DNA of 64,000 nucleotides from Haplodiscus bocki. Its lineage: Eukaryota. The translations under genes and the position numbers were made by a program. This document shows, piece after piece, positions 7,801 to 51,328 of this stretch. The notes below the pieces were generated by a model. The model did not search any database, was not told where the DNA came from, and saw nothing but the letters and a program-made list of their open reading frames with translations. The first letter of the stretch is position 1. Each line of letters starts with the position of its first letter. Where the stretch lies: positions 13,268,001-13,332,000 of the forward strand of contig OZ296657.1 in assembly GCA_965655095.1 (NCBI GenBank). Reading direction: 5' to 3'.

Positions 7801-8027
7801 TAATATAAACAAATAGAAACACTAAAAACAACCGATGATAGTTTTAGTGGAAAGAACACCATACAAAATATAGATGCCAAAAATGATGAAAATGATCTCA
7901 ATATCACACTAGTTTTTCAACCTGAAGATTTGAATTGTTTTTTGCTTCCAGTTTTAATAATATGGAAAACTGTCACATAAAAATTGAGAACTGAAGGTCT
8001 CATCGTGTTTTCATAATAACTGAAAAA

Positions 8028-15533: not shown

Positions 15534-17399
15534 TTAGTTGTTATGAAAACAAAAGCTAAAAACTTGCCCAATTTATTGAAGCTATAAGAGATAGTAATAA
15601 AACACCCCCAGGATTTGAAAAAATTGAGTTTTCATCATCTATAGTTTGTTTGGTATTTTTTTCATTATCATATACATTTTATATACTATCATTAAAGCTG
15701 ACAAAATCATCAATTGTATTCAACATATTCATTTACACAGTGGAAACGTCTGATTTTTGCGCTGTATAAATGAGCAATCTTGATAAAGTGATCAAATTGG
15801 TTGATGATTTTATACAAATAACTAGGAATAAAGAAAACAGTTTGGAAGAAATAAGTGAAATTAGAACTTTTTCGAAAACTTGTTGAAAACATTCATAATG
15901 ATTGTGATAATCATCTTACTATATCGGACCTATTCAATAAAAATGAAGTTCTCTTAAGAATTTAGCTCGATTCGTTGAAAGATGAAATGTTTGACGAATT
16001 AAGTTTTAAAATACTACCAAATGAGATGGCTATTGATGAGGACAAAGCTGTTTTGGAAAATCATACCAAGAACAAAGACAAAAATAGCAGAAGCATTGGA
16101 CTAAAACATTTGGGTTTATCAATTTGGAGATGTAATGTGAGAGTATTTCCCAATTACAGGATGAAATAAACTCCGATGTAACCCATTTTCATAATGTGGA
16201 TTTTTATCATGTTTTCTACATGAAAGAATATTGAGCATTGATTTTGGTTGTTTAATATAAAGTTCAGAAGTCACCTTTATATTGGGACCAAAAGCTGTTA
16301 CAGGTACTTAACTTATACGAGAAAATTCAAGTCCTTTGGCACAAAATATTCAATCCAAAGTAATAAAAACCATTATAGGTGGATAATTGTTATGTTATTT
16401 TGTAATTCAAGTTCATTATGACTAGTAACTTTTTTGTTCAAAACCAATTTGAAATCATTTTTAACAAGATAAAATTCGAATTTTTCATTGTACTTTCGGA
16501 TATGTTCGTGAGAAAATGAATATATAGCAAAGAAATCAAGATTTTGGATAATATGTTTTGTTGGTATACACTTTTCAAAATCATTATGAGTTAGACTTTG
16601 AAGATGCTTTATTTAGCATTCAATATTATTATTTTTACCCATATATAACAATAGTAATCCATTTGAATAAACATGAATAGTTGAATTAAAAAATTTAATT
16701 TGGAGGAGAAAATCAAAAAGAATGTGACATTTATATTTTGAAATCTTCTAATCATGATATGCATCTTCATAAATTACGTAAAACTGCACAATAAGTTTTC
16801 CATGATGAAAAACGTTATTCAGATGAAATTGAAAGCACGCCGTGGAATTGATGTTTTTTGTTCTCAGAGTGGTATATTTGTATTGTCAAAATAATTTTTA
16901 TGTAACAACAATCTTTCTTAAAAAATTTGACATAATTTAATTTATAGTTTTTTACTATTGCTCTTTTGCATCCCCATTGACACGATATTCAGATTAAGTT
17001 TCTGTCAAAACGATCTTTCGTAACAAAATTAGTTTTATACGATATGATTTATTTTTTAATATCATTTTTGTGCACACGCATTGATACGATTCTCAGAAAA
17101 ACTTTATGTAAAATTGATCTTTCCAAGTAAAGATTTTCGTAAGTTTAAGTTCTTTTTATCATTCGGGTGTTCTCCCATTTATCTAGTGTTTAGAAGAACT
17201 TTCTGTAAAACGGTGTCTCATAATAAAGTTTTTATAAATTTAAGTTTCAATTTTTTATTTTCATTCCTTTGTACCCCCATTGATATATAAATTACACAGC
17301 AAAAATATTTGCGTCCGCGTCTTTTTAGTGTAGTTGCAAAATTTACCCGCAGTATTTTAACCGCAGTGCATCGTCGCATCTGGTGTCAAACGTGGTTTT

Positions 17400-28110: not shown

Positions 28111-29947
28111 TGTCGAGCGGGTGGTAGAATTCGGTTCGAAATTATGTTGACACAGACTTGTCATTTTCTTGGTGTGCGGCCGTTACTGATTAAATAAATT
28201 TAAGTCTCAAAGTTGCCCTACCGGCCCGCGTAAAGTATAGCGTGAATTCGCTAGCAAGGACTTAATGAATAGCTATTGGGTGGCTAGAGAATTTGTCAAA
28301 GAATTTGTTTAACGCAAGCAGTTCTGTTATATAAAGTAGGAAATTTATGGCTTGCATATAATACTTGTATTGTCAAACTTGCCAGAGATTTCACAAGGGG
28401 GGCGGTACTGTTTTAAGCGCAGAAGATTTGATTCAAATTCCTTTCTTTTCCAAAAACATTCAAAGTAAGAACATTAGCAACTTTACCGTTGAACTCTGTT
28501 TGATCAATATTTACCAACACTCAGAAATTTAATGCGGAATTATGAATCTACAATTTTTAACTGAAAAATGAAGAAAAAATTGTTGCACGCGCTTTTAATT
28601 GACGCGGAATTGAAACACAAAAATAACAGTAGCTCCAGTGATGAAAAGTAACATCTTTTCTAACCTTGTAGGAGATGAGTTGCCTTTGAGCACCATCTAT
28701 TTGCGTCGAGTTTGTACTAGAACGGAGAAAAAAATCATCGGTATTTTCTAGCAGTTTTTTTTAAAAAAGAACCTCTAAATCAGTTTTAGCTAAGACTACG
28801 TAATTCGCGTAATGAATCAACCTAGCGAGTTCTCCTAGGCCATTACATAGTTGTCAACCCGTAGAATAAAATCTAGGGATTTCGTTGAACGCTGGCTCAG
28901 TCTCGATCAGAAGGTTGACTTAATAACTCAGACACTGTGACTCGGTTTATGGCGTAGCAACCGTGCAATTTCTCCTAGGTTCAGGCAATTACTATCGGAT
29001 AACCAATGAACCTGATTCTGATTGAAATTGGGTTAGTAGGTAATTTCATCTAAGACTCAGCATCATTTCACTTCAATGGAGGCAGCCAATAAAAGCACAA
29101 CCCAGAACGGAAGGACCAAGAACCGATTTCTCTTAGGTATCAGGAAGTTTTGAAGAGTTCTTGTTCAGAGCAGTTTCCGTGGCAACTCTTGTTCAGAGTA
29201 TCTGCTGATGGACCCGATCTTAATTAACTAAGTTCATCTGGTGAGTTGTACTCTACCAGGGTAGTCTTTTTAGATACTAACAATCCGTTTTTTTCCCAAT
29301 GGTGGAATTAGGTTTATAGTTGATAGGTTTTTGGCTATATTTGAATCCTTTCCCAACGATTGGAAACTTCGAGTGTCTTGGAAAAGTTGTCTCTTTTCCA
29401 AAGATATAAACGTTACCAATGTCGGGAAGGCAAATTTCCGTGAAGGTTTCAAGTTTTGAGTTTCCAAATTTTTAGGAGAAGAGAATTGAGAATTTAGCAG
29501 TTTTTGCTTTCGGAGTTGGTAGTTGACGGTAGGCGATCAGGAGTTTTATAGTTTCTCCTGTTGGCGGCCGGCGCTCAGTCTTTCCGAACTCTCGTACCTT
29601 TCAAGGTTATGACCAAGTACGGTAAGCCTTACGCCAAGGAGCACCAAACAAGGTGATCCTCCAAAAAGAGTCAAAAATTGAAGTGTTAGGACGCAAGTTG
29701 TGACTTTTGTGAAGCAATGAAATCAAACTCCGAGAACGGGCGGTAACAAAGAGAAAAGCGTCGTTTCCATCGTCTGAGGCGTGCCAACGAAATTTTGAAG
29801 TTTCAAAATGTGCAATTCCAACTTTGTTCTCGCTCTCCAACAACTATCCTTTCAATCGGTAAGTTACTATTATTTTTCATTATAACTTTTATTATGTCAT
29901 TTCTAAATTTAGAAATAGCATTGTTTAGCGTTATGGCTAACGCAACA
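28111..29947 (-). repeat. 3' LTR (1837 bp)
   Basis: Direct repeat of 49488-51328; TGTCGAGCGG..CGCAACA; purine tract AGGGTGAG precedes it on the minus strand. Confidence 0.95.
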
Positions 29948-29988
29948 ACTCACCCTAGTAACAAAGTGTTGAAAATGATGGAGGGCCT

Positions 29989-30902
29989 CTACGGAAAAGG
30001 AAAGGGAAGAGAAGACTGGGTAGGTTGTTTTGGGGGGTCAAAAAAGGAAATATCAAGGTTACTGGTGTCATTGTAGAGATAGCCATCAGTTTCATTAAAA
30101 GTTTCGTATGTGGGAAGGAGCACGCGTGTCGCGTTGTTGGTAAGGTAGAGAAGTCAATTAAGGTTGGTCGGGTTGATTCTGTGGGCTCGATTGTTTGGCT
30201 CCAGGCATTAAGAGGGTTCAGTTGGTCACGCATTCTGATCTGGATTGGCTTTGAAACCGGCCGAGGCAGAATGTCATCATATTATCCTGCAGATATAGAG
30301 AGAGGGATGGAAGCCCATGTTCCGATAGCAGCGGCGAAACCGTAGGGGTACCAGTTCAAAGAAAAGTTTGAGCCGTATGGGTGAGAGCGAACGCTAGGGC
30401 TGCGAAGTTGGGTGATTGGAGCGTCTTCCCGCCCAGGTATCAGATACCATAATCTGGCGGAGTCAAACACCAGTTTTACAGAGGAAATCTTGAACAACAT
30501 GAAATTACAATTACTGTGCTCAAACTGGCAGATTTGGTCGCCCATAGTTGAGAGCTGAAATTGTAGTGAATTAAGCTTCAAAATGTATCTGCGCGTTTTA
30601 GAAGAACTACGCTTCTCTAAGACTCTAATTTTTTATGCGAGTGTCATTAATGAAGAAGACTTACTTGTTATTTGTTGGTCAAGTAAGTCGATCTGGGGCT
30701 GTAGAAGAGCGAAGTCTCTTTGGAGACGTTGGACCAGCTGCTTGAGGGTTGTCCGTTCTAATTCTTCTGTCTCCACATGCCTGCGCAACTGTTGTAGAAT
30801 AGAATATATCACAATTGCAGGTGATAGCGTTGAATATCTATCTATAGGAGGTGCTTGGGTGGGCAAAGTAAATTCCTCAGGTAATCCAAATAATCCAGGC
30901 AA
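29989..30902 (-). pseudogene. TRAF-like gene (coiled coil + TRAF-C/MATH domain) inside the LTR element
   Basis: Coiled coil LERTTLKQLVQRLQRDFALLQPQIDLLDQQI; then MLFKISSV..LRSPSVRSHPYGSNFSLNWYPYG..GTWASIPLSISAG*YDDILPRP..IRMRDQ..GYLYNDT..ISF, matching the TRAF MATH pattern (IWKI..SPPFYT..GY..LYLNG..GTHLS..GEYD.LLPWP..LLDQ..Y.KDDT). Confidence 0.8.
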
Positions 30903-31100
30903 AAAAATAACTCGTTTTCAACAAACTAGTAAAATCAAAAGTTTAGACAAAATTGAAATAAAAAACTGAAATTTAAATTATTACTGTGAATTAGCTGTTA
31001 TAGCTCGGAGCGGTGCAACAAGTCGCTGAGAGGAGAGGAGCGTAGTCCCGATGGTAATTTCTTGTCGGTGGCTATTCCAGAGGAGTAATTCCCAGGAAGA

Positions 31101-31604
31101 TTATTCCCGTTTCAATCTATAATGCAGATGAGGGTTGAAACGAAGGCATTTCACGACTCTCGCCAGTCGAGCGAAGTGTTCTCTTTTGTGTTGTCGGGAA
31201 ATTGTAAGTCTATCTCGGCTACTAGAGTTTTGGCTGGTGGGTCCTTGCAAACTGCGTAGTTTCCGTTTGGATCGGCCGCGAGCACTGCGGGAAGAAGAAA
31301 TCTTGGATCTAGCGTCTCCAACAGAAGAAGAAATGGTGGAAGGTTGTAATTGGTCACAAGTGACAGTAGGAGCAGAGCAAAACGAAGATAATCCTTTTGT
31401 TGTTGATACAGTGTCCGATTGTGCATCGGGTGGAGCAGGGTTTGACGGGACAGTTATTGAAGGAGGGGAGAAAAGAGTTACTACTGGCTCAACTGGCTGT
31501 CCCAAAGTTGATGGCGTCAAAGTTAGAAAGTCGAATTCCAGATCCGTCAAGACAGGCAATGGGTCGTCACTCTCCCTTGCTTGAAAATCTAAACACTGAA
31601 GCAT
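31101..31604 (-). CDS. Accessory ORF, Ser/Thr/Pro-rich with basic C-terminus (167 aa), unknown function
   Basis: Open 167-codon frame right after env, same strand; SRSARGRSKRKLR basic tract. Confidence 0.45.
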   Translation of the reverse strand: MLQCLDFQARESDDPLPVLTDLEFDFLTLTPSTLGQPVEPVVTLFSPPSITVPSNPAPPDAQSDTVSTTKGLSSFCSAPTVTCDQLQPSTISSSVGDARSKISSSRSARGRSKRKLRSLQGPTSQNSSSRDRLTISRQHKREHFARLARVVKCLRFNPHLHYRLKRE

Positions 31605-31620
31605 TAAACGAAAAAAATTG

Positions 31621-33747
31621 TTAAACAGGTGACAATGGTAATGTTACCGTTCTCATTGCAGAGTAGAGGTGCTTTTCTTTCTTTTTCGCACCCTCTTTCA
31701 CCTCATGCATATCCTTTTTCACACATGGACCTACCTCCATGTGTTCAACAGCGGTTAGCGCCGGAGCACGTGGGTTATACATGGAAGTTAACACAGTTGT
31801 CAATGCAATATTGTATGATGCACTCAGAAAGGTCTTACCAAACCCCAGAGTGGAACCGGTTAACTTATCTATTTCCATGTAACGCATGATCATAACTATT
31901 ACATCAATTAAAAACTTGATGAACAGAAAGAATGAAAAATAGATTCCGCAATGCTCAAGTACGTAAACTACAGGTCCAAATGTGTCCAAAAACGGATCTT
32001 TAAAATATCGAGCTGAAATAATCTTAACCACAAAGAACTCGGTTCATGAGGTATATTAGTGAAAACCGTCTGTACCTTCTTGGGCAGTGGTGTAGACAAA
32101 AAAAATTTGTGCGAAAATTTTAAGTACCATTCTCGAAGCCGCATTGATAAGGATGCTATCACAAAATCCTTTGCTCGTTACGAGTGTACATGCCTGCATC
32201 CTGTAATCCAGTAAAAGTGTGAGAAGCAACCGGGCTAATATACTGAGGTCCAAATATGGCAGGTTTGTCTTGATGTACGATACCAGGTGTTAGGGTATAC
32301 CAGGAATCTTCCTGATCCATGTCGAGTTGGAACAGGTTTTTGATGCGATCAGAACAGTTTTGAGTCGTAGCATGAGGATAGGTTTGTCGGGTTACAGGGT
32401 CAACGAATTGAATTTGTCCTCTGTAAAGAATCAGAATTTTATTATAGCACTGGTTCATTGTGTGAAGAGGCGAATAAACTTTTGGGCAAAGGTAGAGCCA
32501 TGCTACGCTTCCATATGTTTCCAGAAACATTGATCGGTTACCATTGAGCATGTAGCCAGCCAAACGAGGGTTTTCATGGCCTAGCATAAGATTAGTCAAG
32601 GTTTGAGTACGTTCTTGTTCGCATTGGTTTTGTAATAACTGTATTTCCGTCGCTTGGAGTAATCGCGAGCTTTGAAAAAATAAAAAATAAATCTTCGTTG
32701 CAAGGTGCATTTCATGGTAGGCAATCTTCAAATAACTATCGGGGTTCTCTGTTTGTAACTTTTGTGTTCCCTCTAACTGAGGATTGTGAGCGTAAAGTTG
32801 AAGGAAGTGGCCTTTCTCCTTTGGTCTCAAAGTTTGTAGGATCTTGGTTGCTCCAGTTTGATCGCGACCCAGGTTTCTCCCGATGTCAATGTCAGAACCT
32901 TCGCTTGAGCTATCCATATAAAAAGAATCATAGTCTGTGGGTTGGATAGATGTTGGCTTTCCGCAATGTTTTTGAGTGTTGTTCTTCACTTCAAATACGA
33001 ATTTAGAGCTAGAGTCGGCTCCACTGATAACGTAACACTTTCTTCCTTGTTTTACCAGGTTAACCTCCTCAGTTCAAACAATCGAGATTTGCGCAGTTGT
33101 CAGGATAGTCCCATATGTAAGGATAGGGGTCTAACGAAGTAGTTTCACATCCCAGTTCTTCCAAAGAGCATGGTAAAATTAAACCAGTATCAGATAAAAT
33201 TTTCCCGTTTTCTAACGTAACTTTCAGAGTGGTGGTTTGCATGTGAGGGAGGAAGGTGTCACGAGTGATCCAACCTTTACTGTTACATTCATTCCTGTAG
33301 TCAACTCTGGTGTCACTAGAGGTTTCTACAATAGGGTTTTTTGTGTCGAAAACAAAACTTATCGAAAGCCCAAGTAACGCTCGACATTGTTCTGGAGAGA
33401 TAACAATGTGACTTGTAATTCCTGCAAAAGTGTGATCAATGCTGCTATGATCATGGTGTCCACAATGCTTTTTTTTTCCGGACGTGTTGTAATTGGCTTT
33501 TTGTAACCTTTAATTCTTTTCTAAGATGTTTGGTGAAAAGGACAACTTTAGCCTTACTTATTTCCAATTCTTCAGGCATAATAAGGCTAGGTCGTACCTG
33601 ATTTATGACGTAAAGAGATTTATCAGTCATTTCACTGCAATCAAAATGAGCTGCATTCAGAGCATAGCCAACCTGATCTTCATCTGGAGTTAAATTGAAA
33701 GCTACTTCGACAGTATGTGCGACCATTTGGAAAAATATTAGCTTCAT
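31621..33747 (-). pseudogene. env: env: chuvirus-like class III fusion glycoprotein, frameshifted
   Basis: N-terminal hydrophobic stretch, AAHFDCS (YDC-type start), Cys-rich ectodomain, helix LQNQCEQER..LAGYML, AWLYLC..QCYNKILILYRGQIQFVDPVTR, C-terminal TM GIYFSFFLFIKFLIDVIVMI. Confidence 0.75.
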
Positions 33748-33999
33748 CGCTAGAATACATCTGTAGATGGTAGCTAAGAAAAAGGAACAGTAAAAAGGAA
33801 AGCCGTAATCTTCAAGCGGCAACTTTGTGGGCACGAATACAAAGCCGGAGCAAAAATTTTGTAGTAGGCGCTCCGCTACTGCGAAACGACACCGAGATTT
33901 CTTTAAAGGACGTCGGACTAGAACCGAGTGTCAAAAAGGGACGCCGGACTAAAACCAGTTCGTCAAAAAAGTGCCAAATACGGTTTTTTAACCTAGATT

Positions 34000-36375: not shown

Positions 36376-38150
36376 CTAAAGTTTATAACGCTGACGAGTG
36401 AGGGTACGAAGAACCGATTGAGAATTAGGATCGTTTGGCTGAGGTCTGTAATACCTTGGTTCTCTTGCTTTAGACTTGAGACTGTTCCGCAGAAATTGTT
36501 GTATCAGAGTAAGTGGTCTGGTTGCAGCCGAAGTTGACAGTTTTTCCTTCGCCGTCTCCTGTGAATGTTGTGATAGTTGTTCAGGTGTATTGGGTAGGGT
36601 TGGCGAGAAAAATTGAGGTGAGTCAACTCCCGAGTCACTGCTGGTGACTTTATCACGTTTGAGTGAAGTGATTGCCCGAGCCGTAGGTGATGGTTTGATT
36701 GGAAATGGAATGGGGTCTTCTGCGACTGGCTCAGTAAAGCTGTTCATTTTCCCAATTCTTTCTTCCAAGAAACGTTCATAAAAATCGTCATCATGTCGTT
36801 GGTCGTGTGGTACATATTCTTCAATCATAGCTGGTAATGATTCTTCTTTAGGATAGTATTCAACCAAATGGTTAGGGTGGACCGTTTGCATAACTGATCG
36901 GTCGTTGTAGTCTTGAATTTGATAGGTAGTACTAGTTATACGCTTGATAACGGCAAATGGACCCAGTCGTCGCTGTTGTAGTTTTTGACTTTTTGATAGG
37001 TCCTGCCGGTGGTTTTCGTAAAAAACTTTCTGACCGACGCCCAGACGGCGTCCTACTTTAAATTTGTTCCTGTATGCATGGGAACAAGCCCTCTGTTCGC
37101 GACATCTTTTCAAAGTAGGGGAAAAAATGTTTAAAGTCTCGCTCTCGATCTAACGGAGGGTGAGAAAGCTGTGGTTGAAGTAAATTCTGGAGAAGCTCAT
37201 TCTTCGTAGAGTTCTCGTCGTGAGTATGAGGAGGCAAGTCCGTACAGAAGTCGGAACAACATAAGTTATGTTTCTTTCGGTAGTGTCCCAATTTGACAGA
37301 CATGGGAATTTGTGGTTTGGCGTCGAAGACGATTTCGTAAGCCGTTTTACCAGTCGTGTAATTAACACTGGCATTGTGCTCGAACGCAAACTTTGGCGCG
37401 AGAGAAGCCCAGTTAGTGCCAGCATCGTTCAGAGAAATTCTCCAATAGCGAGCAATTTGCTGGTTCTGAGTCTCTACTTTGCCGTTTGTCTAAGGCGAGT
37501 GAGCTGTACGTGGTCGAAGGGTAATTCCCAACTCTTTAGTCCACTTGATGAAAACTGTGTTGAAAAAGGTTGTCACTCTATCGTTTATGATAGACTGAGG
37601 AATTCCAAATTGAAGTATCCATTTTCCGACTGCGGCACTGGTAGCTTGTGCTCCGGTATTAGTAACAAGATAGACCATTGGGAAACGCGAGAAAGAGTCA
37701 ACTAAGAGGAGACTATGGGTGTTCCGGTTACTCGGTGGATGGAAAAGTCCTTTATGGTCGATATTTATTGCGCAAAACGGTGCGGTATCACTTGGCCATT
37801 CTTCCAACGGTACCTCGTTAAGATGTTTAGGTTTTGGTTTATTATTCTGGCATGCAAGACAGTCAGCTGTTAAGGCCCAGATCCAGTCGAACATCCCTGG
37901 CCAATAATATAATCTTTTAGCGTTAGCATACGTCTTTGAGGCTCCCACGTGTCCTCTTATTAAAATGTCCCATGCGGAAGCAAGCTGAGAAAAGAGGTAA
38001 AGGTAAGCAGATTCGTAAGTTCCTTTCGGTTAATGTATCAGAAGGTTCATTATTACACAGAAGTTTGCCGTGCTCTTCTATGAGTAGTCGATCTAGCTCT
38101 TGGCCGTATCTGAGCAGACCTTTAGACTGTCAGTTTTCTGGAGCTTTTAG
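36376..38150 (-). pseudogene. pol: pol: integrase (HHCC, DDE core, GPF C-terminus)
   Basis: HVGASKTY..YYWPGM..CLACQ; NIDHKG..LVDSFSRF..FGIPQSIINDR..TNGKVE; RRLGPFAVIKRITSTTYQI. Confidence 0.9.
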
Positions 38151-38899
38151 GTCAGGAGAGATACCTCCTTGAATCCAGGAGCGTACAACACTGAGCATTG
38201 GATCTTTTGTGTTGCTCGTGTAATATGGTAGGAACATCAAGATAGAAAACCTTTACAACATCAACCAGATTGGTAATCAAATCCCGAGTTCTCAAATGAA
38301 GAGCAGCCGTAGCTGATAGTCTCTTTTTTGCGAAGAAGGTATCAGGATTACTAAGTACCGAGTCATGAGTTGCTCGAGCCTTGCATAGGCGGTAGTGATC
38401 GTTGGCATTGATTTCACAAGCGTAGGCATCTTCATGCTCGTTCATATCGCAATCTTCGTGAACTCTATGAGTTCGACGTGTGAAGAGGCTCCAGTGTCCT
38501 CGGTTCGTGCCGTCTCAGTCACATTGATAGAACTGTGTGTTCCAGTGGAGCTTCCAGATGGTGATAATGATACTGAAGACTGTGGTCTGCACGGCCGTCG
38601 GAACTGGTTGATAATTTCTCCCATTCGGAAACAGTCTGAAGCTAGCTGTACTGAAGACGTAGCAAGGTCAGTACTAATGGTATTAGTAGAAAAAATTTCA
38701 CCGTCAATATGCAATCGGAGTATCTTCTGATCTTTGCCTTGTTGGCAATGAATAGGGTAAAAATCGTTACACGTATCAGCTGTGGTATCTTCGTGGTTTA
38801 TTCTGTACGTTATCTGTTGTCCTTATTCGTCAAAAAACTGAATATCTTGTGGTAGTTTTTTGTGTTGAAGTTGGTGATTTTGATATTCGTCAATGATCA

Positions 38900-39542
38900 C
38901 GTTCCGGTTAAGTATATCAGTGAACGCTTGGTTAGATCCTGGCGTCCAGATGATCTCCAAATTCTGGAACTTCGTTATTATAACCTGTTACCTGAAGAAC
39001 CGATGGGATAACTGTCTTTTGCGTCCCCATAGAGAGAGGATGGGTTTGTGGTCACAATACAAGTATATTGGAAAAGGAGATCCAATAATGTAATGCTCAT
39101 AAGTTTGCAAAGCTGAGACAATCCCACACAATTCCCTGTGGAGTGTTGACATCTTTCGTTCAGCTTTTTCAAAAAATTGAGAATTGAAGAAAATGATTCG
39201 CTTCTCTTCCGCGAACTGTTGTATTAGAATGCAACCAGTTACAACATTAGACAAATCTTCGTGACTATGAATACGATACTCAGTTAAAGGAATGGCGAGA
39301 CTTCTATTTTCACTGATTCTATACCTTATCATTTGGAAGACCTTCTAGTGATTTTCAGTCCAATGGAACAACGTAGAACCTCTAATGAGCTCGTAGAAAG
39401 GTTTTCTGCCCACGTGAAGGTTTTTGATGTAGCAACTGTAAAATCCAAGATATCCCTGCACTTTCATAACATCTCGTTTGCACTCGGGTGATTTGAGATT
39501 CTTTAGGTCATTGACCCGTTTGGCAATTAGCTGTATTCCGTC
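38900..39542 (-). pseudogene. pol: pol: RT C-terminus and RNase H
   Basis: DGIQLIAKRVNDLKNLKSP; GCILIQQF..STLHRELCGIVSALQTYEHYIIGSPFPIYLYCDHKPI. Confidence 0.9.
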
Positions 39543-39547
39543 GGTAG

Positions 39548-39668
39548 GCCTAGACCGTGCAGCAAAAATCAGTTTAATATTGGAGGTAGGCAGTGCCTAC
39601 CATGCCAGATATTAAGCTGACAAGAACAGATACTACACATGATCTTAGCCAAAAGGCCGAGAAGAGAT
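39548..39668 (-). ncRNA. U2: U2 snRNA copy, 3'-truncated (nt 1-121)
   Basis: ATCTCTTCTCGGCCTTTTGGCTAAGATCATGTGTAGTATCTGTTCTTGTCAGCTTAATATCTG.. with branch-recognition GTAGTA and Sm site GATTTTTG. Confidence 0.95.
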
Positions 39669-39766
39669 AACCCAAAAATATTCTATCTCCACATATAAAT
39701 CACAAATGTAACTTCCATCATGCAGTTTTTCAAATTCGCACATTCTCAGCTACCCCAGCTATGACC
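39669..39766 (-). promoter_or_regulatory. U2 upstream region, probable snRNA promoter
   Basis: ~98 bp nearly identical to 44138-44235, upstream of the other U2 5' end. No PSE consensus recognised. Confidence 0.55.
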
Positions 39767-40547
39767 TTGACTTCTTACAACATGACAGGACAACGATCCA
39801 ACGTCTTTGCATTCATTGTAGGCGCTAATTGTGGTAGTTGTTGCCAAACATCATGACACTGAAACTGAAACGCAAACTTTTGACCTTCAAAATTATGTTA
39901 TCAAACAGGTTGTCATCGAAAGTGCATGTAAAATGATTTCGCTAGAACACCCGTTAATGGTCTCAAAATGAGCAATTCACTTGCCAAAATGGTTCCGTGA
40001 GAAACTTTTGCAGTTTACGTACACCCAAACGTGCTAAAGCGCCAAATTGGTCTGACAGAGCTACGTAGGTCTGACAGAACTGTAGGAACCTGCAAAAACT
40101 CTTTTTGTCTACGTCAACGGCAAGTCAAAAAAGGATGTCCAATTCTCCGTAACATTACGTAAGAGTCCTAATTCACAAGTTATGAGCTTAAAATTGGCAC
40201 AAAACCAAGCACCCGCGAAGCAGTAGCAAAAAAAACCGTAAAACCAAACGTCCCAAAAGACAACGTATGCAACCTTCTGACTGATGCACACTTCTTATTC
40301 CCCAAGAAGAGTCTTCAAGCCTGAAAAGACTTCTGGTTGAGTCGAATAACCTAACTTATGGGCGATACTGGAAGAAAAAGATGAGAAACAAAAAATTCAG
40401 CTATACTGCAAACACGAAAACCCAAAAACGAACTTCATCAAACGATTCAACAAAAATGCATAACATCACTCAACACACTCATTATTTCAACTTCAAGGAT
40501 CACTGTTTAGGTCCAGTTGAGTAGGTAATGAGTTCAAAATGGTCGAT

Positions 40548-40696
40548 TGGGTCGTACCCGGTGGGAGTGTAAGACCGGGACAATCCCTGGTCCGGCTAAA
40601 GCAAGCTTTTTTGCCTAGACCGTGCATCAAAAATCAGTTTAATATTGGAGGTAGGCGGTGCCTACCATGCCAGATATTAAGCTGACAAGAACAGAT
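40548..40696 (-). ncRNA. U2: U2 snRNA 3' portion (nt ~38-186) downstream of the retrotransposon insertion
   Basis: ATCTGTTCTTGTCAGCTTAATATCTG..Sm site..stem-loop IV CCCGGT-CTTACACTCCC-ACCGGG..GACCCA. Confidence 0.93.
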
Positions 40697-43600
40697 GAAA
40701 TATTTGAATTAGTATAAATAAAACAAAATATACGAGGTAAGTTTTTTTTCAAACACTGGTTAGAATCATACATTTACAAAAGTAAATATCAAGAAAAATG
40801 GGGTTTGAGTTTTTGTCAGAAAAAGTTTGATTAATAGATTTGCGGAATTCCTGTCAGATGTTCTGCGGAGATGTTTCGGGAATGGTGGATGACAAGAGCT
40901 GCGGCTTTGCGAGTAAACGTTGTGATGTCCTTCTTGCTGCGGATGAACTTCTGGAGCACAGGGTATGAGGATCTCGAAAAACTGCCCAGAGTACCCAGCT
41001 GGATTGTGGCGATTGAGGTAGAAAATCCACTGACTTCATAGGCTCGTTTCAAGTTCTCATATTTCACTTGCATCTGCTGAGCATTCCATTGGAAAGTTTC
41101 TTGAGATTCAGCAGATACTTTGATGTCAATGATGGCAGCTTCTTTGGTCTGTTCGTCCTGCACAATGATGTCCGGCTGCATGTTTCCAAAACGTTGCTCC
41201 TTCAAAATTCTTAGCCGATGAGGAAACTGAGAGGCTAGAAGGTCTCGGACATCGTTGTGCCGTTTAATGATTTTCTTCCTCATCACGCTGCAGTTACTTA
41301 ATGTATGATTTAGGGTCTCACGGTCGGCTTGGCATTGACGGCAGTTTTGATTTTCAGGAAGATGATTCCACACAAAGTTTGATCTTACAGGGACTAGATT
41401 TAGCCTTGCGCGGTGGATGAATCTGAAGTCGCAGAGTTTTGTATGAAAGTTGAAGACTGCTTTAGTTGTTTGCGGTGTTTCGGCCAAAGTCCTCCAGAAT
41501 CGTCCTTGATTCGGCGCCCGTTGTATTTCTTTCAAACTCTGTTTCTGCAGGTATCGGGTAAGAACAGGCCAAGGGTCTCGGTACTTGGCGCCTTCTATAG
41601 AAAGCGTGACACTGTCCTCCAGCATGGTCAGTTCGACGTCTGTGTCCAGGTACTTTGCTAGTCTTCGTAAGCTTCTGGCTGTTTCCTTGATTGTATCACC
41701 GTACCCTCTCACGCTACCACTGTTGATTGCGTCTATAGCTTCTTGCAATGTTTTGTCGTCGAGTAACACGCGCTTTAGGTATTCGCCAAATGGTCCTGTT
41801 GTATTGAGGCTTCGGATGAAAGTTTGGAGAGTCATTTTGCTTTTGGCGAGAACTAGATCTGGCAGACCGGGACCACCATACATGCGATGAAGATGCAGGT
41901 ATGCCGTAGCAGCCCTTTCGGGTAGGTACAAAAGTCGTTTGGTCATTCTCCGAAATTGTCGATTCATCTTCTCCAGTTGGGTCATTGTGCTGTTAGAGTT
42001 CTCAAGCAAGTGGAACAGCATCGGGTAGATCTTTATTCGCAGTGCATGCAGTTTTTGCATTGGGGTCAACTCTGAGCATTCAATTAGTTCAGCCATGCGG
42101 AATGTTTTGTCGAAACACGAATCCAGTCCTTGGATTGTTGAGGGGAACGCTTCTGTACCAAGGTACTTGTATGCCCTGTCATCTTGGACCTCGGGAATGG
42201 ATGTTCCGTCAATGTCCAAAGTCAGAGACCTCAGATTCGCTACACCACACTTCTTTGCATTGAAAGAAAAACCAAGACGTTTTGCCAATTTCACTGTTCT
42301 GTTGAAAATGTCTTGGACCTCACTTTCTTCGTCTATGATGATGGCCAAATCATCCATATATCCAAGACAAACTGAGTTGGCCGACGTTGCTTCTTTGAGT
42401 ACGGGGTCCAAAACCAGATTAAAGAGGAGACCACTTAATGGGCAGCCCTGCTTGACACCGCGTGTGACTGGTACTGGTCCTGCGAGTTCTTCTCCTTCAA
42501 CGCTCACAGGCGTTGTCTTGCACCCCGCATATCTTATCAGCTCCACTATCCACTGGGGACAGTTGCACTGCTTTAACGCCTCGAAGATTAGCTTCTGGTC
42601 TACACTATTGAATGCATCTGACAGGTCCAGATAGATTACTGTCTTTTTCTTCTTCAGAGCGTTCCCAACTGCCAGTGTGTTTTCAGAGACACCACGTCTT
42701 CCAAAAGCAGCTCTTTGGCAGAAACCAATGCCTTTATTTACTTCAAGCCATTTGCTCAAGCGTTTGTAGAGAATGGAGGCGAGTAGCTTGTATGACACGT
42801 TTGACAGGGCTATTGGTCTAAAGCAGCGAAGTTCTTTTTCTTGACCAGCTGTGTACTCCTCTGGCTTCTTGAAGAGCATCATACTATTGTATGATTTCCA
42901 GCAGGACGGAGTTAAGCTGCTATAACCCATCGCATGTAGACCTTCAGTAAAATTCTTTGCGAAAACTTTTTCTTGTCTCACTTTGTCATAAGTCCATCCA
43001 TCTGGTCCTGGGGCTGAGTTTTTGTGTTCTAGTGCTCGTTCAACTTCGTACACTGTGAAACGACGGGCTAGGTCTTCTCGTCCCTCATTGCATGGCAGCC
43101 AGTGTCTTGTTGTCAAAGATGATGCCCCGTTGTTGTTTGGAGCACTCAACTGCTGTAACAGGCCATAGCGAAGATCTATCTCATCGACTTGACAAATGAT
43201 TTCAGGTACAAACTCGATGCGTTTCAATGCCGCTTTCATATCTTTACTGTAAAGTTTTTGTAATTCTGCAGCAGTCATCCTTGATTGCTGATGATGTGTC
43301 CTTCTCGCAGTGTTCCGTTTCATCTTTTCTTTCGGAGGCAGCAAAGCATTCAACCATTCGTCACATTCTTCGCCTTGCCAATTCAGATCGTTCTCATGTC
43401 TTTCATAGCTGTCGGGATTGACGCTTTCAGCATCGGTGTCATCTAGCTCTGCCAAAGGGGTACTAGAGACTGTACTAACAGATAGCAAGTCATCTGCTGT
43501 TTCGGCCACCGCCACAGTTTCTTCTATCGGTAACAAGGGCAAAGGAGGAGCAGGGGGTGCTGGTGGTAGTGATGATGACGCCGGTGGAGGAGACAGCCGC

Positions 43601-44107
43601 GACTTGGATGCAAGAGTAAGGGTTACCTTGCATTTACGTCTGTGACTACTCAAAGCCTTCTGAGTCCCAAACGAGCTGTTGCAACTGGGACATGGGTAAG
43701 TAGTCACCTGCACCGACGGGTCCCCGAAATGAGAACCTTGATGTGTTGTAGCTTTTCTGCGGTCACTTGTCAGGAACTTACAGTAAATACACTCAAAAAC
43801 CAACTCGTTTGCTTCTCTGCATCCAGGATCGCTCTGTCTGCAGACCCTCGAGTGTCGAAAAACGTCTCTCTTGAACGCGGACTCTTTGATGGCTCGGTCA
43901 CACGCCACACAGATTAGTGGAAAAGCCACAGGGAACGGCACCACTGCAGTTTGGCCATCGAAAATGAAGCTCGACATCTGCACGGCTCGACACGTGAGGT
44001 TGAAGCTGTCTCACTGCTCCTCCTGTCTTCTTGGACACTTCCTGCTGTCGTCTTGCTGTAGCGTCAGGAAGTAGGCTCGTCTTGACTTCAAGCTCGACAA
44101 AGAACAC
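40697..44107 (-). mobile_element. U2-targeting RLE non-LTR retrotransposon (Utopia, NeSL group)
   Basis: Single ORF inserted in U2 after nt 37/38 (GTAGT(A)|TCTGTTCTT), same orientation, no poly(A). Confidence 0.9.
40831..43977 (-). CDS. Intact non-LTR polyprotein (~1048 aa): three N-terminal Zn fingers, RT, CCHC, restriction-like endonuclease
   Basis: CVAC..H..C, CIYC..H..H, CPSC..H..C; SAPGPDG, FRPIAL, LDLSDAFNSV, GVKQGCPLS, YMDD, YKYLG; CRQC..ETLNHTLSNC, RHN, QPDI..IIDIK. First ATG at 43977 (the track starts at GTG 43983). Confidence 0.95.
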   Translation of the reverse strand: MSSFIFDGQTAVVPFPVAFPLICVACDRAIKESAFKRDVFRHSRVCRQSDPGCREANELVFECIYCKFLTSDRRKATTHQGSHFGDPSVQVTTYPCPSCNSSFGTQKALSSHRRKCKVTLTLASKSRLSPPPASSSLPPAPPAPPLPLLPIEETVAVAETADDLLSVSTVSSTPLAELDDTDAESVNPDSYERHENDLNWQGEECDEWLNALLPPKEKMKRNTARRTHHQQSRMTAAELQKLYSKDMKAALKRIEFVPEIICQVDEIDLRYGLLQQLSAPNNNGASSLTTRHWLPCNEGREDLARRFTVYEVERALEHKNSAPGPDGWTYDKVRQEKVFAKNFTEGLHAMGYSSLTPSCWKSYNSMMLFKKPEEYTAGQEKELRCFRPIALSNVSYKLLASILYKRLSKWLEVNKGIGFCQRAAFGRRGVSENTLAVGNALKKKKTVIYLDLSDAFNSVDQKLIFEALKQCNCPQWIVELIRYAGCKTTPVSVEGEELAGPVPVTRGVKQGCPLSGLLFNLVLDPVLKEATSANSVCLGYMDDLAIIIDEESEVQDIFNRTVKLAKRLGFSFNAKKCGVANLRSLTLDIDGTSIPEVQDDRAYKYLGTEAFPSTIQGLDSCFDKTFRMAELIECSELTPMQKLHALRIKIYPMLFHLLENSNSTMTQLEKMNRQFRRMTKRLLYLPERAATAYLHLHRMYGGPGLPDLVLAKSKMTLQTFIRSLNTTGPFGEYLKRVLLDDKTLQEAIDAINSGSVRGYGDTIKETARSLRRLAKYLDTDVELTMLEDSVTLSIEGAKYRDPWPVLTRYLQKQSLKEIQRAPNQGRFWRTLAETPQTTKAVFNFHTKLCDFRFIHRARLNLVPVRSNFVWNHLPENQNCRQCQADRETLNHTLSNCSVMRKKIIKRHNDVRDLLASQFPHRLRILKEQRFGNMQPDIIVQDEQTKEAAIIDIKVSAESQETFQWNAQQMQVKYENLKRAYEVSGFSTSIATIQLGTLGSFSRSSYPVLQKFIRSKKDITTFTRKAAALVIHHSRNISAEHLTGIPQIY

Positions 44108-44137
44108 CTGATCTCAGCCAAAAGGCCGAGAAGCGAT
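44067..44137 (-). ncRNA. U2: U2 5' end (nt 1-~30) followed by a diverged U2-like leader
   Basis: ATCGCTTCTCGGCCTTTTGGCTGAGATCAGG-TGTTCTTTGTCGAGCTTGAA..GCCTACTTCC. Confidence 0.85.
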
Positions 44138-44235
44138 AAAACAAAAATATTCTATCTCCACATATAATTCACAAATGTAACTTCCATCATGCAGTTTTTC
44201 AAATTCGCACAATCTCAGCTACCCCAGCTATGACC

Positions 44236-44590
44236 GCTTTTCAAATTTATTGCTTTTGCCCGCATTGGAATTATCCTTCTGAATATCGTTGCAACCAACT
44301 TTTGAACTTCCGAGATTTTTTGCTGGAAAAGGTCGTTATTTGTCTGATCATTCAATTTATGCTCGATACCTAATTTTTTGATTTTCTTTTGTGTTTCATA
44401 ATTTTGTATGCTTTTCCCACTCAAAATCTCTGTTTCATCAACATTAACAGATAGTTGAGTGGCATCGCAAAAACACTTTACTCTGTCAAATAAGGTTTCC
44501 AGAGATCTACTTTTAACGTAACAAGTTTTATCATCAGCATAGGCTGAAACTTTAGTGACAAAATTGGTGTTTATAAAAGGGTCGTTATAG
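44236..44590 (-). pseudogene. L1/Tx1-like non-LTR RT fragment
   Basis: KVSAYADDKTCYV..FCDATQLSVNVDETEIL..IKKLGI. Confidence 0.75.
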
Positions 44591-44597
44591 GGTAGGC

Positions 44598-45330
44598 AAA
44601 ACAACGTGTCCTAAAACGTTCACTCTTTGAGGAAGAAGAATGTTTTTTCCTGAGCGGGTTTCAGACCGGCTTCCCTCATTAAATTGTGGTACTCGTGGAT
44701 ACTCAAGAGCATTTCTCCTTTGTTTTGTGATTGCATTATAGTGTCGTCTATGTAGGTTATTGTTGTCTTTTTTTTTAATCAGCGGCTCGAAATGGATTGT
44801 CATTAGTCGGCTGAAAAACTTAGGTAATCCACATAGTCCATAGAACCCTCCGATATATGTGTACTGTCTACCACCAATGATAAAGCTAGTCAGCTTCTGG
44901 GTTTCAGGACTCAGTGGTACTCGATGGTATGTGCAGGATAGACCACTGACAGAAAAGAATTTTTCGTTTACTCAAGATCATTTGTACAGGTTATAGAGGT
45001 CACGAGTAGTTAGTAAGGTCAGTGACAGATTTTAGGAATCGAGCTTCTATGACTTGTTTCATATAGTCGCTTTTGTGCATCAGAATGATGCGGTTAACAA
45101 ACAGTGATCTCATTTTGTCATTGTCTCCCATTTCTCGAATAATAATTTCGTCATTTAGTTGAGTTAAGGGTTTCTCCAGTTTTTTTTAAGTGCAGTGGTA
45201 CTTTGCTAGGTGTCTGCTTTTTCAATTCTACACTTGGTTTCAACTATACATGAAACTTTTGACGAATTTTACCAACGTCGAACTTGTGTTGCGAGTAGAC
45301 ATACCTAGAATCAAATAACATGTCGATAAG
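44598..45330 (-). pseudogene. pol: pol: RT N-terminal part
   Basis: YSQHKFDVGK, KVPLH, YHRVPLSPETQKLTSF, ITYIDD, FLGHV; resumes at 39542. Confidence 0.9.
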
Positions 45331-45629
45331 GAGAGTCACCTTTTCATCGGTAATATCAGAGAACTGGAAGCCAAATTCCTTCATGTATTGCACAAGTTCT
45401 TTCGGCTGGTATTGTAAATAATGTTCAATCAGATGATTGTTATAATCTTTATCCCGAAATGTAAGAAACTGTTCATCGCATGTAGGCTGACAAGATTTAG
45501 CTTCTCTAGTGAAATCCGTTTCCAAGTCTCTGCCGTGCAATAGAACTCTTCGCTGTACCTTTCGATTTCGTCGTCAGCTTAGAAGTCGAGGTCTCCTTCT
45601 GAGGACAAGGCATGTACTCCATTTTTTTC

Positions 45630-46056
45630 TAAAGTGTAAACTACTATTCGAATATTTGAGTCGGCGAAAAAATCCTTAAGTAGTTTTACAACATCTTGCC
45701 AGTTCATTTGATCAAGTCCGCATCCAATTGTAGGAATTGCGATGGCCGAGATTCCATACAATCGTGCATGGGACTTCATTTCCTCTAGAGTTAAAGATAA
45801 GGTACGTAGGTTAGGTTCTTCAGAATAATAAGTTTTCGTCACCAAATTGTAGATATATCGGTTCCCAACGTGGTCCCATAATTGAAAGGTTTGCCCTGTC
45901 AATAATTTTGTCCGTCTGCATGCATCTCGAAGTCCAAGAATCTGTTGAGAGCAGGTCGGCGAACCCTTTGCTCATCTTAGCATCGGCTGAGATGCAAAGC
46001 CCAATGGAGTGTGGTTGTTGCAATGTTGAGTCTTTGGTACCAAGGATAATTTGTAA
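45630..46056 (-). pseudogene. TARG1/OARD1 (Poa1p-like) macrodomain within pol, one frameshift
   Basis: SIGLCISADAKMSKGFA..RYIYNLVTKTYYSEEP..LEEMKSHA..IAIPTIGCGLDQMNWQDV..IRIVVYTL aligns by eye with human TARG1 (SLAHCISEDCRMGAGIA..RYIYYLITKK..LEAMKSHC..MPRIGCGLDRLQWENV..ITVYTL). Confidence 0.9.
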
Positions 46057-46499
46057 ACAATCATCTGGAGATTGCGCGGGAATTTTTGAGTGTAAAAGAA
46101 AACAGTCATTGCATTTGTTGTCACTAGTTATTATGGCATTGGTTAACTCATAGGGGTTCCTGATTTGGTACTTTGGTTCTTTTTTATTGACTACTTCCAA
46201 AAACGAAAATCCATTTCGTCCTCTAGGGAGCCTTATCTGACGGTTTTTGTTAGTTTCGATCAGTATTGGGAGAGTGGGTTCAGGCTGAGTGCATATGATA
46301 TCAACAAAAAAAAGACCAGTCGACACCGCTTCCCTGTTGGGTTGAAAAGTTGAACCAGGAGGGATGAGAGACTTAGGATCTCCAGGCGAGTACTTCCAAC
46401 ATCTTGCTCTTTTAGCGTCAACGTGCATAGTATAAAGCAACCGGTTTGTTAGAATTCGAGAAACATGAGGAAAGCTTTTGTTTTGGTGAAGATTTCCAT

Positions 46500-46840
46500 A
46501 ACAGAAAGTTTTTGGAGGCTGCCATAGTTCATTACCGGGTGAATTGAAATGAATTCCGGAAGTCTGGTTCTAACAGAAGTCCATCCCGAGGAGGTATTAA
46601 GTTTTCGTTTTCGGAATCCAGACAGTTAGAGGAAATGAATATTCACCATTAGGGTCTTAAGTGAACTCTATAGTGGCGTAACCGATCATTAGTACTATTG
46701 GCTCGAATAAGTTTTGGTTAATTTATTGATTCTCTGCACCATTTTAGGATGTGGGAATTGTGAAATCTCCCAGAAAGTCCGATAAATGATGATCGAGCAG
46801 GAAACTCCTGTATCCAGCATGAATTCAATTTCTAGTCCAC
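46500..46840 (-). pseudogene. pol: pol: aspartic protease
   Basis: IEFMLDTGVS at 46801-46830; LLGMDF at ~46575-46595. Confidence 0.85.
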
Positions 46841-46986
46841 TATCTTTTTGAGCTTCTCCGGTGGCGAAATAGAAAATATTAAAGCTAAGTGTTCAACTCC
46901 TGGTGCCATCGGAGTCAGACCTCGGAGACCTCATCAGTTTAACGGGCAGAGGTCGGACAATGCATTGACTGAATCGTCTGTTGTGG

Positions 46987-48380
46987 TCAATCGAACTGCA
47001 TGAGAACTAGGTTGGTCATTCGTTTGCGAAAATCGCTGTTCATAGGGGACAAAACTACCGGATTCTTGACTGCTGGATCGTCAAAATATTTAATTATTGG
47101 GCCTACTAGACCGCCAGGGCTGAAACTGCCGGCTCGGCTGTGAGTCTCGTCTTGGGCCAGAAGGAGAGCATGGATTGGTTCCAATATTTTGCCAGGTTCC
47201 TCTCGTCGGCGTTCCGGGAGAACCATTCCTGTAGTAGTTGTCATCATTCCTGTTAGCGAACTGATTCTGGTATCAATCAAACGATGGTCCACGACCAGAA
47301 CTGAATGAATTGTTTCTGGACGGATTACCCCAAATAATTCCTACGTAGAATTGTGTAGTTTCTTCGTAAGTCGCTTGTTGTGCGTCGGTTGTGTCCCTTC
47401 TAGCTTGATTTATGCTTCCAGCATTGTTATGAATGAACTTTCCAGATCCATGACTAGGTCCTCGGCGTTTGTTGTAATCGGTCCTGAATGTTAAGCGTTT
47501 TTGAGCCATCTTCCCGTTCTGTACTTTTTTGATTTCTTCATCCCGAATTTTCTTCCTACACCAGCTTGGAGTGTGTCCGTTGGTGTGGCAGTAATTGCAA
47601 AACTGCGTGGCGTTTTGTCGGCCCTTTTGGTTAGGGTCGGGTTGTCGTGTATTCTTCAGTGCAATTTCTCGATTGTCCTGTAGCCCGGAACGCAGATTTT
47701 TCATTTCTTGGGCCAGTGAGGCCAGTTGGATTTTGGTCTGTTCCTCATCATTGAGGAAGTTCGAAGAGACTTGATAACTTACGTATCGTTGGATGATTCG
47801 TGTGGAGAAATTGTTCCATTTTGCGTTAGGATTTTCCATCAAGTATTCTTGTGCTTTTCGTTGTAAGTATCTTGGACGAAGTCCTCGTAGAGTATAATCA
47901 ATGTATCAATGTCGCCTTTGTCTCCCTTGTGCTTGACGTGCTGCAGCTCTATCACCTTCTGCAATACCTTTCATGTCAGCAGGCCATCCTTTGTCGACAA
48001 TATTCTTTATTCGATGTAAAAAAACTTCTGATTTCTTCTCCGTCGCCTCGCACACAGTGTTCTACTTCCATTCTGTGACGGAATTTAATCCATTCGTCGG
48101 AAAAATTTGTTATGAATTGTTCCCGTGTGGCTGCCCAACTGGTGGCATTCTCGATATTATTTTCATACCACTCTGCCGCTGGTCCTCGGAGTATAGAGGA
48201 AAAAAGTGACTTTTTGCGAAAAGTATAACTAACCAAATCATCAAAATCCGCGGGTGCATCACCTAATGCGAAGTTTATTTTCCTTTCTATAAGTTGGACA
48301 AAAGATTCAGCGTCCTGGTCGGGATCAGTGCCAGAGAAACTTGTCTAAGGCTAAATCGGGGTATGCGAGATGACTGCTAG
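46987..48380 (-). pseudogene. gag: gag, frameshifted
   Basis: FSGTDPDQDAESF..LRGPAAEWY..; zinc knuckle CNYCHTNGHTPSWC (CX2CX4HX4C). Confidence 0.9.
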
Positions 48381-49467: not shown

Positions 49468-49485
49468 CCTCACTGGTCGCACCAA
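49468..49485 (-). other. Primer-binding site
   Basis: TGGTGCGACCAGTGAGG starts ~3 nt after the 5' LTR; tRNA species not identified. Confidence 0.7.
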
Positions 49486-49487
49486 TT

Positions 49488-51328
49488 TGTCGCGCGGGTG
49501 GTAGATTTCGGTTCGAAATTATGTTGACAAAGACTTGTCATTTTCTTGGTGTGCGGCCGTTACTGATTAAATAAATTTAAGTCTCAAAGTTGCCTTGCCG
49601 GCCCGCGTGAACAAAGTAAAGCGTGAATTCGCTAGCAAGGACTTAATGAATAGCTATTGGGTGGCTAGAGAATTTGTCAAAGAATTTGTTTTACTCAAGC
49701 AGTTCTGTTATATAAAGTAGGAAATTTATGGCTTGAATAAAATACTTGTAATGTCAAACTTGGCAGATATTTCACAAGGGGAACGGTACTGTTTTAAGCG
49801 CAGAAGATTTGATTCAAATTCCACTCTTTTCCAAAAATACTCATAGTAAGAACGTTAGCAACTTTACCATTCAACTCTGTTTGATCAATGTTTATCAACA
49901 CTCAGAATTTTATTACGGAATTATGAATCTAAATTTTTTAACTGAAAGTTGAAGAAAAAATTGTTGCACGCGTTTTTAATTGACGCGGAATTGAAACACA
50001 AAAATAACAGTAGCTCCAGTGATGAAAAGTAACATCTTTTCTAACCTTGTAGGAGATGAGTTGCCTTTGAGCACCATCTATTTGCGTCGAGTTTGTACTA
50101 GAACGGAGAAAAAAATCATCGGTATTTTCTAGCAGTTTTTTTTAAAAAAGAACCTCTAAATCAGTTTTAGCTAAGACTACGTAATTCGCGTAATGAATCA
50201 ACCTAGCGAGTTCTCCTAGGCCATTACATAGTTGTCAACCCGTAGAATAAAATCTAGGGATTTCGTTGAACGCTGGCTCAGTCTCGATCAGAAGGTTGAC
50301 TTAATAACTCAGACACTGTGACTCGGTTTATGGCGTAGCAACCGTGCAATTTCTCCTAGGTTCAGGCAATTACTATCGGATAACCAATGAACCTGATTCT
50401 GATTGAAATTGGGTTAGTAAGTAATTTCATCTAAGACTCAGCATCATTTCACTTCAATGGAGGCAGCCAATAAAAGCACAACCCAGAACGGAAGGACCAA
50501 GAACCGATTTCTCTTAGGTATCAGGAAGTTTTGAAGAGTTCTTGTTCAGAGCAGTTTCCGTGGCAACTCTTGTTCAGAGTATCTGCTGATGGACCCGATC
50601 TTAATTAACTAAGTTCATCTGGTGAGTTGTACTCTACCAGGGTAGTCTTTTTAGATACTAACAATCCGTTTTTTTCCCAATGGTGGAATTAGGTTTATAG
50701 TTGATAGGTTTTTGGCTATATTTGAATCCTTTCCCAACGATTGGAAACTTCGAGTGTCTTGGAAAAGTTGTCTCTTTTCCAAAGATATAAACGTTACCAA
50801 TGTCGGGAAGGCAAATTTCCGTGAAGGTTTCAAGTTTTGAGTTTCCAAATTTTTAGGAGAAGAGAATTGAGAATTTAGCAGTTTTTGCTTTCGGAGTTGG
50901 TAGTTGACGGTAGGCGATCAGGAGTTTTATAGTTTCTCCTGTTGGCGGCCGGCGCTCAGTCTTTCCGAACTCTCGTACCTTTCAAGGTTATGACCAAGTA
51001 CGGTAAGCCTTACGCCAAGGAGCACCAAACAAGGTGATCCTCCAAAAAGAGTCAAAAATTGAAGTGTTAGGACGCAAGTTGTGACTTTTGTGAAGCAATG
51101 AAATCAAACTCCGAGAACGGGCGGTAACAAAGAGAAAAGCGTCGTTTCCATCGTCTGAGGCGTGCCAACGAAATTTTGAAGTTTCAAAATGTGCAATTCC
51201 AACTTTGTTCTCGCTCTCCAACAACTATCCCTTCAGTCGGTAAGTTACTATTATTTTTTATTATTACTTTTATTATGTCATTTCTAAATTTAGAAATAGC
51301 ACTGTTTAGCGTTATAGCTAACGCGACA
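49488..51328 (-). repeat. 5' LTR (1841 bp)
   Basis: TGTCGCGCGG..CGCGACA (7-bp terminal inverted repeat); direct repeat of 28111-29947. Confidence 0.95.

Follow-up and report, generated by a model that had tools for sequence, protein, structure and literature searches.

Within the 64,000-nt stretch of the Haplodiscus bocki genome analysed here (the window), a TARG1/OARD1-class macrodomain lies at 45,630-46,056 on the minus strand, in pol of an env-bearing Ty3/gypsy element of 23 kb (Table 1). The element, at 28,111-51,328, ends in two 1.84-kb LTRs with TG...CA termini, its pol follows the order protease (PR), RT, RNase H (RH) and integrase (IN) with gypsy-type Pfam domains, and it has an env-like third ORF that is broken in this copy. 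The macrodomain sits between the protease motif LDTG (~46,815) and RT, which is where the first-pass annotation of this DNA had placed it.

Table 1. Features of the macrodomain-bearing element in the window, in order along the minus strand.
Feature	Position	Strand	Evidence or remark
5' LTR	49488..51328	(-)	97.6% identity to 3' LTR over 1,842 columns
Primer-binding site (TGG...)	~49,470-49,484	(-)	just inside 5' LTR
gag fragments	47276..48344	(-)	Pfam Retrotrans_gag, E 4.6e-5
Aspartic protease of pol, broken	46560..46845, bounds approximate	(-)	LDTG near 46,815
Macrodomain, N-terminal piece	45952..46056	(-)	CISAD motif (Ser35 equivalent); same frame as upstream linker
Macrodomain, C-terminal piece	45630..45950	(-)	LVTK (Lys84) and GCGLD (Asp125); frame differs from N-terminal piece
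RT, 5' part, broken	44570..45130, bounds approximate	(-)	translation, tblastn
Nested insertion splitting RT, foreign to the element	39576..44570, bounds approximate	(-)	U2 snRNA gene pieces and non-LTR retrotransposon
RT, 3' part, and RNase H	38583..39575	(-)	Pfam RT_RNaseH, E 5.5e-17
Integrase, broken	36379..38207	(-)	H2C2, rve, SH3/p58_C
env fragments, chuvirus/gB-type class III fusion glycoprotein	31621..33930	(-)	Pfam Monjiviricetes_fusion PF24664, E 2.6e-19 on 32,162-33,073
Post-env accessory ORF: coiled coil and TRAF-type MATH domain	29958..30920	(-)	disrupted in the window; other copies have it as a 309-aa open frame
3' LTR	28111..29947	(-)	element flanked by 4-bp target-site duplication ATAC

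The macrodomain and the state of the window copy

Three-frame translation of the minus strand gives LQIILG as the first residues of the domain (46,056) and VVYTL as the last (45,630), reproducing exactly the span first annotated. Two frames share this span, with a frame change near 45,950 when a natural public Pol is aligned to it by tblastn. The C-terminal piece alone matches human OARD1/TARG1 (E 1e-16) and Pfam Macro (E 5.6e-5), while an unbroken natural copy in the same genome (L020) matches residues 20-148 of human OARD1 at E 6.5e-24, its next non-TARG1 match being DarG at E 4.9e-5. The best sequence match of the domain is TARG1, and not MacroD, PARG or DarG, and the class originally assigned to it stands. 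Residues are numbered here by counting along chain 2lgr (160 aa, ending at Leu152), by which the lysine of LVTK is K84 and the aspartate of GCGLD is D125, the two equivalents that had been read as retained. The labels Ser35 and Gly123 are placed by the same count.

Aligned by tblastn with the natural public Pol, the window pol yields 12 HSPs and changes frame ten times; it also has stops and the nested insertion in RT, and for these reasons this copy is unable to make Pol. It is a dead relic; taken alone, it is an ordinary dead insertion. The two LTRs are nevertheless 97.6% identical despite the ten frame changes, and the best DNA matches to the copy reach only 84% among the 40 of 1,593 candidates that were scored. 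Possible reasons are mobilisation in trans of an already defective copy and homogenisation of the LTRs.

The insertion in RT is composed, over 39,506-44,235, of U2 snRNA pieces (Rfam RF00004; 39,506-39,668, 40,542-40,731 and 44,066-44,137) and a non-LTR element. The latter interrupts one U2 copy, and its 1,059-aa zinc-finger/RT ORF (40,831-44,010) is intact; it may be of the U2-targeting Utopia type.

In-frame copies across the family

The genome (1.5 Gb) holds 1,593 DNA candidates (40 scored) and 6,294 protein candidates (150 scored) for the domain; these are first-look counts, and the protein candidates include other macro-bearing families. Open frames of at least 1,700 codons occur at 16 of the 150 scored protein candidates. 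In the window subfamily, the PR, macrodomain and RT motifs share a single stop-free frame at 2 of 30 loci (the window counted), with the macrodomain joined to RT at three more of these loci and PR joined to the macrodomain at three. In a distant subfamily, with 44-47% domain identity, all three run in one frame at 9 of 12 loci. A public protein of 1,827 aa carries PR (28-117), the macrodomain (290-432) and then RT, RH and IN in a single chain. The TARG1-class domain is a real, selected, family-wide feature of Pol, and these natural copies, in which it is in frame with PR and RT, bear out the initial view that it is built into Pol.

That view had been set against a processed pseudogene. Within the domain the window copy changes frame, as might be expected of a host TARG1 processed pseudogene or of an assembly artefact confined to one copy. 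The interval 45,400-46,300 around the domain contains no poly(A) run of at least 8, and the longest direct repeat shared by the flanks of the domain is 8 bp, with no target duplication of its own. Given in addition the large number of first-look candidates, the in-frame natural copies and a domain tree that follows the RT tree, we regard either explanation as extremely improbable. The in-frame natural copies already refute both.

A single gain among macro-less relatives

A search with the RT-RH region delimits an isolated clade of 36 proteins (the query counted) at 44-100% identity, outside which identity to other gypsy RTs falls from 44% to 32%. The domain lies between PR and RT in 9 of the 36. 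The nearest macro-less proteins (P0396-P0399) are 156-169 residues shorter in the PR-RT region, and the gap in the alignment falls at the domain. Macro-bearing rows form one clade, nested among macro-less rows, with support 90 (unstarred) in a rapid 47-row RT-RH tree that used SH-aLRT only and omitted truncated, duplicate and many distant rows. The tree contains no named reference elements, and the family appears in it as its own long-branched clade. The domains of the macro-bearing clade also group as one clade (97/88), so that domain and RT trees agree. Since the macro-less sisters show the empty site, the domain was gained once.

A macro-less sister family is present in the same genome, with RT 65-69% identical; it has the domain at 0 of 6 loci, and its PR-to-RT interval is ~490 nt shorter. 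Open frames of at least 1,600 codons are found in 16 of its 150 scored copies. This family amplified without the domain in this very host, so the domain is accessory and not needed for replication.

The host also has a TARG1 gene candidate of its own (L043; L072:4344-5327 (-)), which is single-copy, intron-less and without retroelement domains, and which bears a 190-aa N-terminal extension with no Pfam family. The first-pass annotation had called for a phylogeny of the domain against host TARG1. The candidate falls outside the element domains in all three trees, but an AU test did not reject their grouping (p 0.17).

The same class at other positions in Pol

A cellular-type TARG1 query found the domain in two unrelated gypsy families of the same genome, in one between RH and IN and in the other at the IN end, with the Lys84/Asp125 pair intact at 11/11 loci of the former and 6/6 of the latter. 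A profile search extended this to public proteins: among 45 longer matches that were scanned, four RT-bearing Pols have the domain at the RH-IN or C-terminal position, one of them from the sawfly Athalia rosae (XP_048515211.1), and one more protein has it after the protease. Two gypsy Pols (P0263 and P0295) have a tandem pair of TARG1-like domains in the RH-IN interval, of which the second is degenerate.

The PR-RT, RH-IN and C-terminal domains of this genome group together with P0304 and P0291 at 97/89 in a tree of 29 rows and at 89/70 in one of 40 rows (mixture model); with 55 rows the grouping was not recovered at 80. A common capture by the three families of this genome may be entertained from these trees as a lead only.

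Active site, selection and fold

The Lys84/Asp125 pair is kept in 27/29, 12/12 and 14/14 loci of three subfamilies (53/55 altogether) whose domains are 44-81% identical, which extends to the family what had first been noticed in the window. Among 120 public matches K84 is present in 114 and D125 in 117, where columns are conserved at 0.81 on average; by rank of conservation the two columns lie in the top 20% and the top 3%, respectively. All five families and subfamilies of this genome that were examined retain both residues.

Domain dN/dS is 0.17 in the window subfamily and 0.04 in subfamily B, beside values (window subfamily/B) of 0.14/0.06 for PR, 0.09/0.04 for RT and 0.18/0.02 for the PR-macrodomain linker; these are pairwise codon counts from 11 loci with long open frames, a choice that biases them downward. 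Synonymous sites between subfamilies are near saturation. Judged from its codons, the domain is under purifying selection.

Purifying selection on an in-frame segment might nonetheless mean little more than that processing of Pol requires the segment to fold and to remain in frame, in which case the domain would be a tolerated passenger. In-frame inserts in Pol are shielded from stops and frameshifts anyway, the adjoining linker has much the same dN/dS (0.18, 0.02), macro-less sisters thrive and decayed versions of the domain exist, all of which a passenger would explain. It would not readily explain why the active-site residues are fixed when the domain has otherwise diverged by more than half between subfamilies (44-47% identity), nor why unrelated families keep the same class at three Pol positions, and we think a mere passenger quite improbable.

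The linker itself (46,100-46,500, minus strand, in the window) is conserved, with dN/dS of 0.02-0.18. By eye it resembles a dUTPase-like fold, which occurs in some gypsy Pols; the segment has no Pfam match.

An AlphaFold model of the domain reached a pLDDT of 95.6 from a 79-row alignment that included cellular homologues; a model from a shallow alignment of 20 rows (pLDDT 49) was set aside. The modelled domain has the minimal macrodomain fold without extensions, and a Foldseek search of the PDB with it returned human TARG1 at all of ranks 1-8 (TM 0.85-0.89), followed by DarG and Poa1p. Very probably the domain is a hydrolase. Passages in PMC9411070, PMC8120803 and bioRxiv 10.64898/2026.03.31.715305 give Lys84 and Asp125 as the catalytic pair of TARG1, while one in PMC7050489 gives residue 125 as Glu125. 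By analogy with the human enzyme, Lys84 would attack the distal ribose and Asp125 would resolve the adduct.

Not every lineage has kept this site. In P0391, P0393/P0394 and P0400 a full-length, in-frame domain on a long branch has a changed GCGLD loop; the genome searched with two of these decayed-site domains gave nothing above 40% identity. Persistence in frame in three lineages after loss of the Asp125 loop is what would be expected of a non-catalytic reader, one whose binding of ADP-ribose or poly(ADP-ribose) would position Pol or the particle, or would sequester the signal, and the ALC1-like class includes readers according to a passage in PMC7050489. However, the loop that changed also binds the diphosphate, and its change should impair ADP-ribose binding as well; the conservation ranks of K84 and D125, and their retention in all five families and subfamilies here, speak against a reader too. 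A reader therefore seems very doubtful to us.

A proposed role

We lean, at slightly better than an even chance, towards the view that the domain, an in-frame and selected part of Pol, serves as an accessory enzyme that would strip host-added ADP-ribose from the RNA, cDNA or proteins of the element. As part of Pol it would, by what is general in retroelement biology, be carried in the particle alongside RT and the genomic RNA. Marks of this kind would be set by host PARPs, for example the helicase-PARP fusions of this genome, and unless they were removed from the base or protein concerned, translation or reverse transcription would be blocked.

Passages of bioRxiv 10.64898/2026.03.31.715305 describe human TARG1 as selective for the uracil-N3 and guanine-N1 ADP-ribose that PARP10/15 place on RNA, which it removes far more efficiently than ADP-ribose on protein. 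With this preference for RNA base marks, the genomic RNA would rank no lower as a candidate substrate than the cDNA or proteins named in the first-pass annotation. The RNA-binding patch of the human enzyme is given in the same source as K50/R86/R126. These positions are basic at 1/3 in subfamilies A and A2, which include the window subfamily, and at 3/3 in subfamily B and the RH-IN family. They vary among cellular invertebrate TARG1s too, and net charge of the domain does not separate element from cellular copies.

The host genome has 31 matches to the PARP family profile. Of nine of these that were examined, all with long open frames, seven are SF1 helicase-PARP fusions (three with a ZNFX1 domain) and two are ankyrin-PARPs. 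Read by eye, the H-Y-E triad is present in three of the seven fusions, the glutamate is absent in three and one is cut short. These fusions (L063-L067, L069 and L071) are long single-frame genes of SF1 (ZNFX1-like) type with one or two PARP domains. Helicases of the ZNFX1 type sense foreign RNA. The helicase-PARPs are linked to the elements by co-occurrence alone. A fuller version of the proposal, in which RNA-sensing helicase-PARPs would ADP-ribosylate bases of element RNA or cDNA and three unrelated gypsy lineages would counter with a TARG1 eraser, a mobile module exchanged between elements and fitted into three slots of Pol, is tentative and, taken whole, rather unlikely.

The catalytic evidence as a whole would fit equally well with an active hydrolase whose task is DNA-damage housekeeping and not immunity, clearing PARP1-type ADP-ribose from cDNA ends, nicks and Pol proteins during reverse transcription and integration. 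Passages in PMC7050489 and PMC4695847 have TARG1 acting at sites of DNA damage and on nucleic-acid ends that carry ADP-ribose, and cellular relatives of the domain are fused to DNA ligase 3, BRCT and HMG domains. Yet a single-copy TARG1-like gene candidate is present in the host itself, macro-less sisters integrate without the domain, and a position between PR and RT gives no tie to integrase. We consider housekeeping unlikely.

Only recently has ADP-ribosylation of DNA and RNA bases been described in animals; TARG1 is the enzyme that reverses such marks. If retroelements repeatedly capture and keep an eraser, this would be genetic evidence that hosts place the marks against reverse-transcribing parasites. 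Both sides can be named for a test in vitro, namely the isolated domain and the host helicase-PARPs, and sister families with the domain, without it and with a decayed one, some of them in one genome, amount to a natural comparison.

Relation to known systems

The closest known protein is human TARG1 (OARD1, C6orf130; PDB 4J5Q, 4J5R, 4J5S, 2L8R), of the ALC1-like class, which the element domain resembles in fold (TM 0.88, rmsd 1.4 A, 32% identity), in minimal domain size and in equivalents of Ser35, Lys84, Gly123 and Asp125. Human TARG1 is a free nuclear protein, whereas the element domain sits inside a retroelement polyprotein; the human GDL motif near the start is replaced by GTEDSIL, and the basic RNA-binding patch is only partly kept in the window subfamily. 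The macrodomain of the DarG antitoxin (PDB 5M3E, 5M3I) belongs to the same class, shares the catalytic lysine and has a similar fold (TM 0.82-0.84), but it is a far weaker sequence match (E 4.9e-5 versus 6.5e-24 for TARG1) and, according to a passage in PMC7050489, lacks the acidic partner that the element domain has.

Coronavirus Mac1 and alphavirus nsP3 likewise place an ADP-ribose eraser in a replicative polyprotein and are the model for the proposed function; they are MacroD-type, with 12-13% identity and TM 0.73-0.75 to the element domain. Macrodomains of RNA viruses act against PARP immunity. The first-pass annotation had contrasted this domain with RNA-virus macrodomains as a MacroD-type group. 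For Mac1 and nsP3 this is right, but as a general contrast it was too strong: in a Foldseek search of viral models, arthropod RNA-virus and cressdnavirus proteins rank first, at 27-33% identity. Kadipiro virus VP8 is among the best of these (TMq 0.89), the likeness being judged by fold and identity. From these matches, retroelements are probably not the only viruses to have the TARG1 class.

Capture of a macrodomain by an env-bearing LTR retroelement also has a precedent in fish. Teleost epsilon-like endogenous retroviruses occasionally carry macro-domain ORFs, as a passage in the review PMC4977317 states, citing Basta et al. 2009; by that description they differ in being Retroviridae, as against Ty3/gypsy here, and in having the domain in additional ORFs. 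The env-carrying Ty3/gypsy elements of Chary and Hayashi (PMC13524379) share with ours the gag-pol-env arrangement between LTRs, the PR-RT-RH-IN order and a gB/chuvirus-type class III fusion protein. The main text of that paper contains 0 mentions of macro, TARG1, OARD1, ADP-ribos or TRAF, and among the 10 matches to 'macro' in its 7 supplements the 4 displayed are species names. A captured macrodomain in a viral or retroelement polyprotein is already known; for the TARG1 class in a gypsy Pol we found no report in a literature search that excluded subscription journals and Repbase reports.

Other features of the element and the window

The accessory ORF downstream of env matches MATH at E 1e-5 in the window and at E ~1e-17 to 1e-14 in 3/3 natural copies scanned. 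It lies 9.5-11 kb downstream of the macrodomain in 37 of the 40 best macrodomain matches, a count in which these 40 were set against 65 of the 144 MATH matches. The ORF has a coiled coil with its TRAF-type MATH domain, and neither RING nor zinc fingers; possibly it is a dominant-negative TRAF decoy. About a dozen closely spaced copies of it occur on contig C4 near 103.37-103.40 Mb. An extra ORF stands between env and this TRAF-like gene, at 31,101-31,643 (minus strand) in the window and ~208 aa long in other copies; a Pfam scan of it gave no match.

No tRNA genes were found in the 64-kb window. Beyond the element, long inverted arms at 6,743-8,508 and 15,044-16,855 are 73-82% complementary and ~6.5-9.8 kb apart, and probably represent an ancient DNA transposon or a repeat present in two opposed copies.
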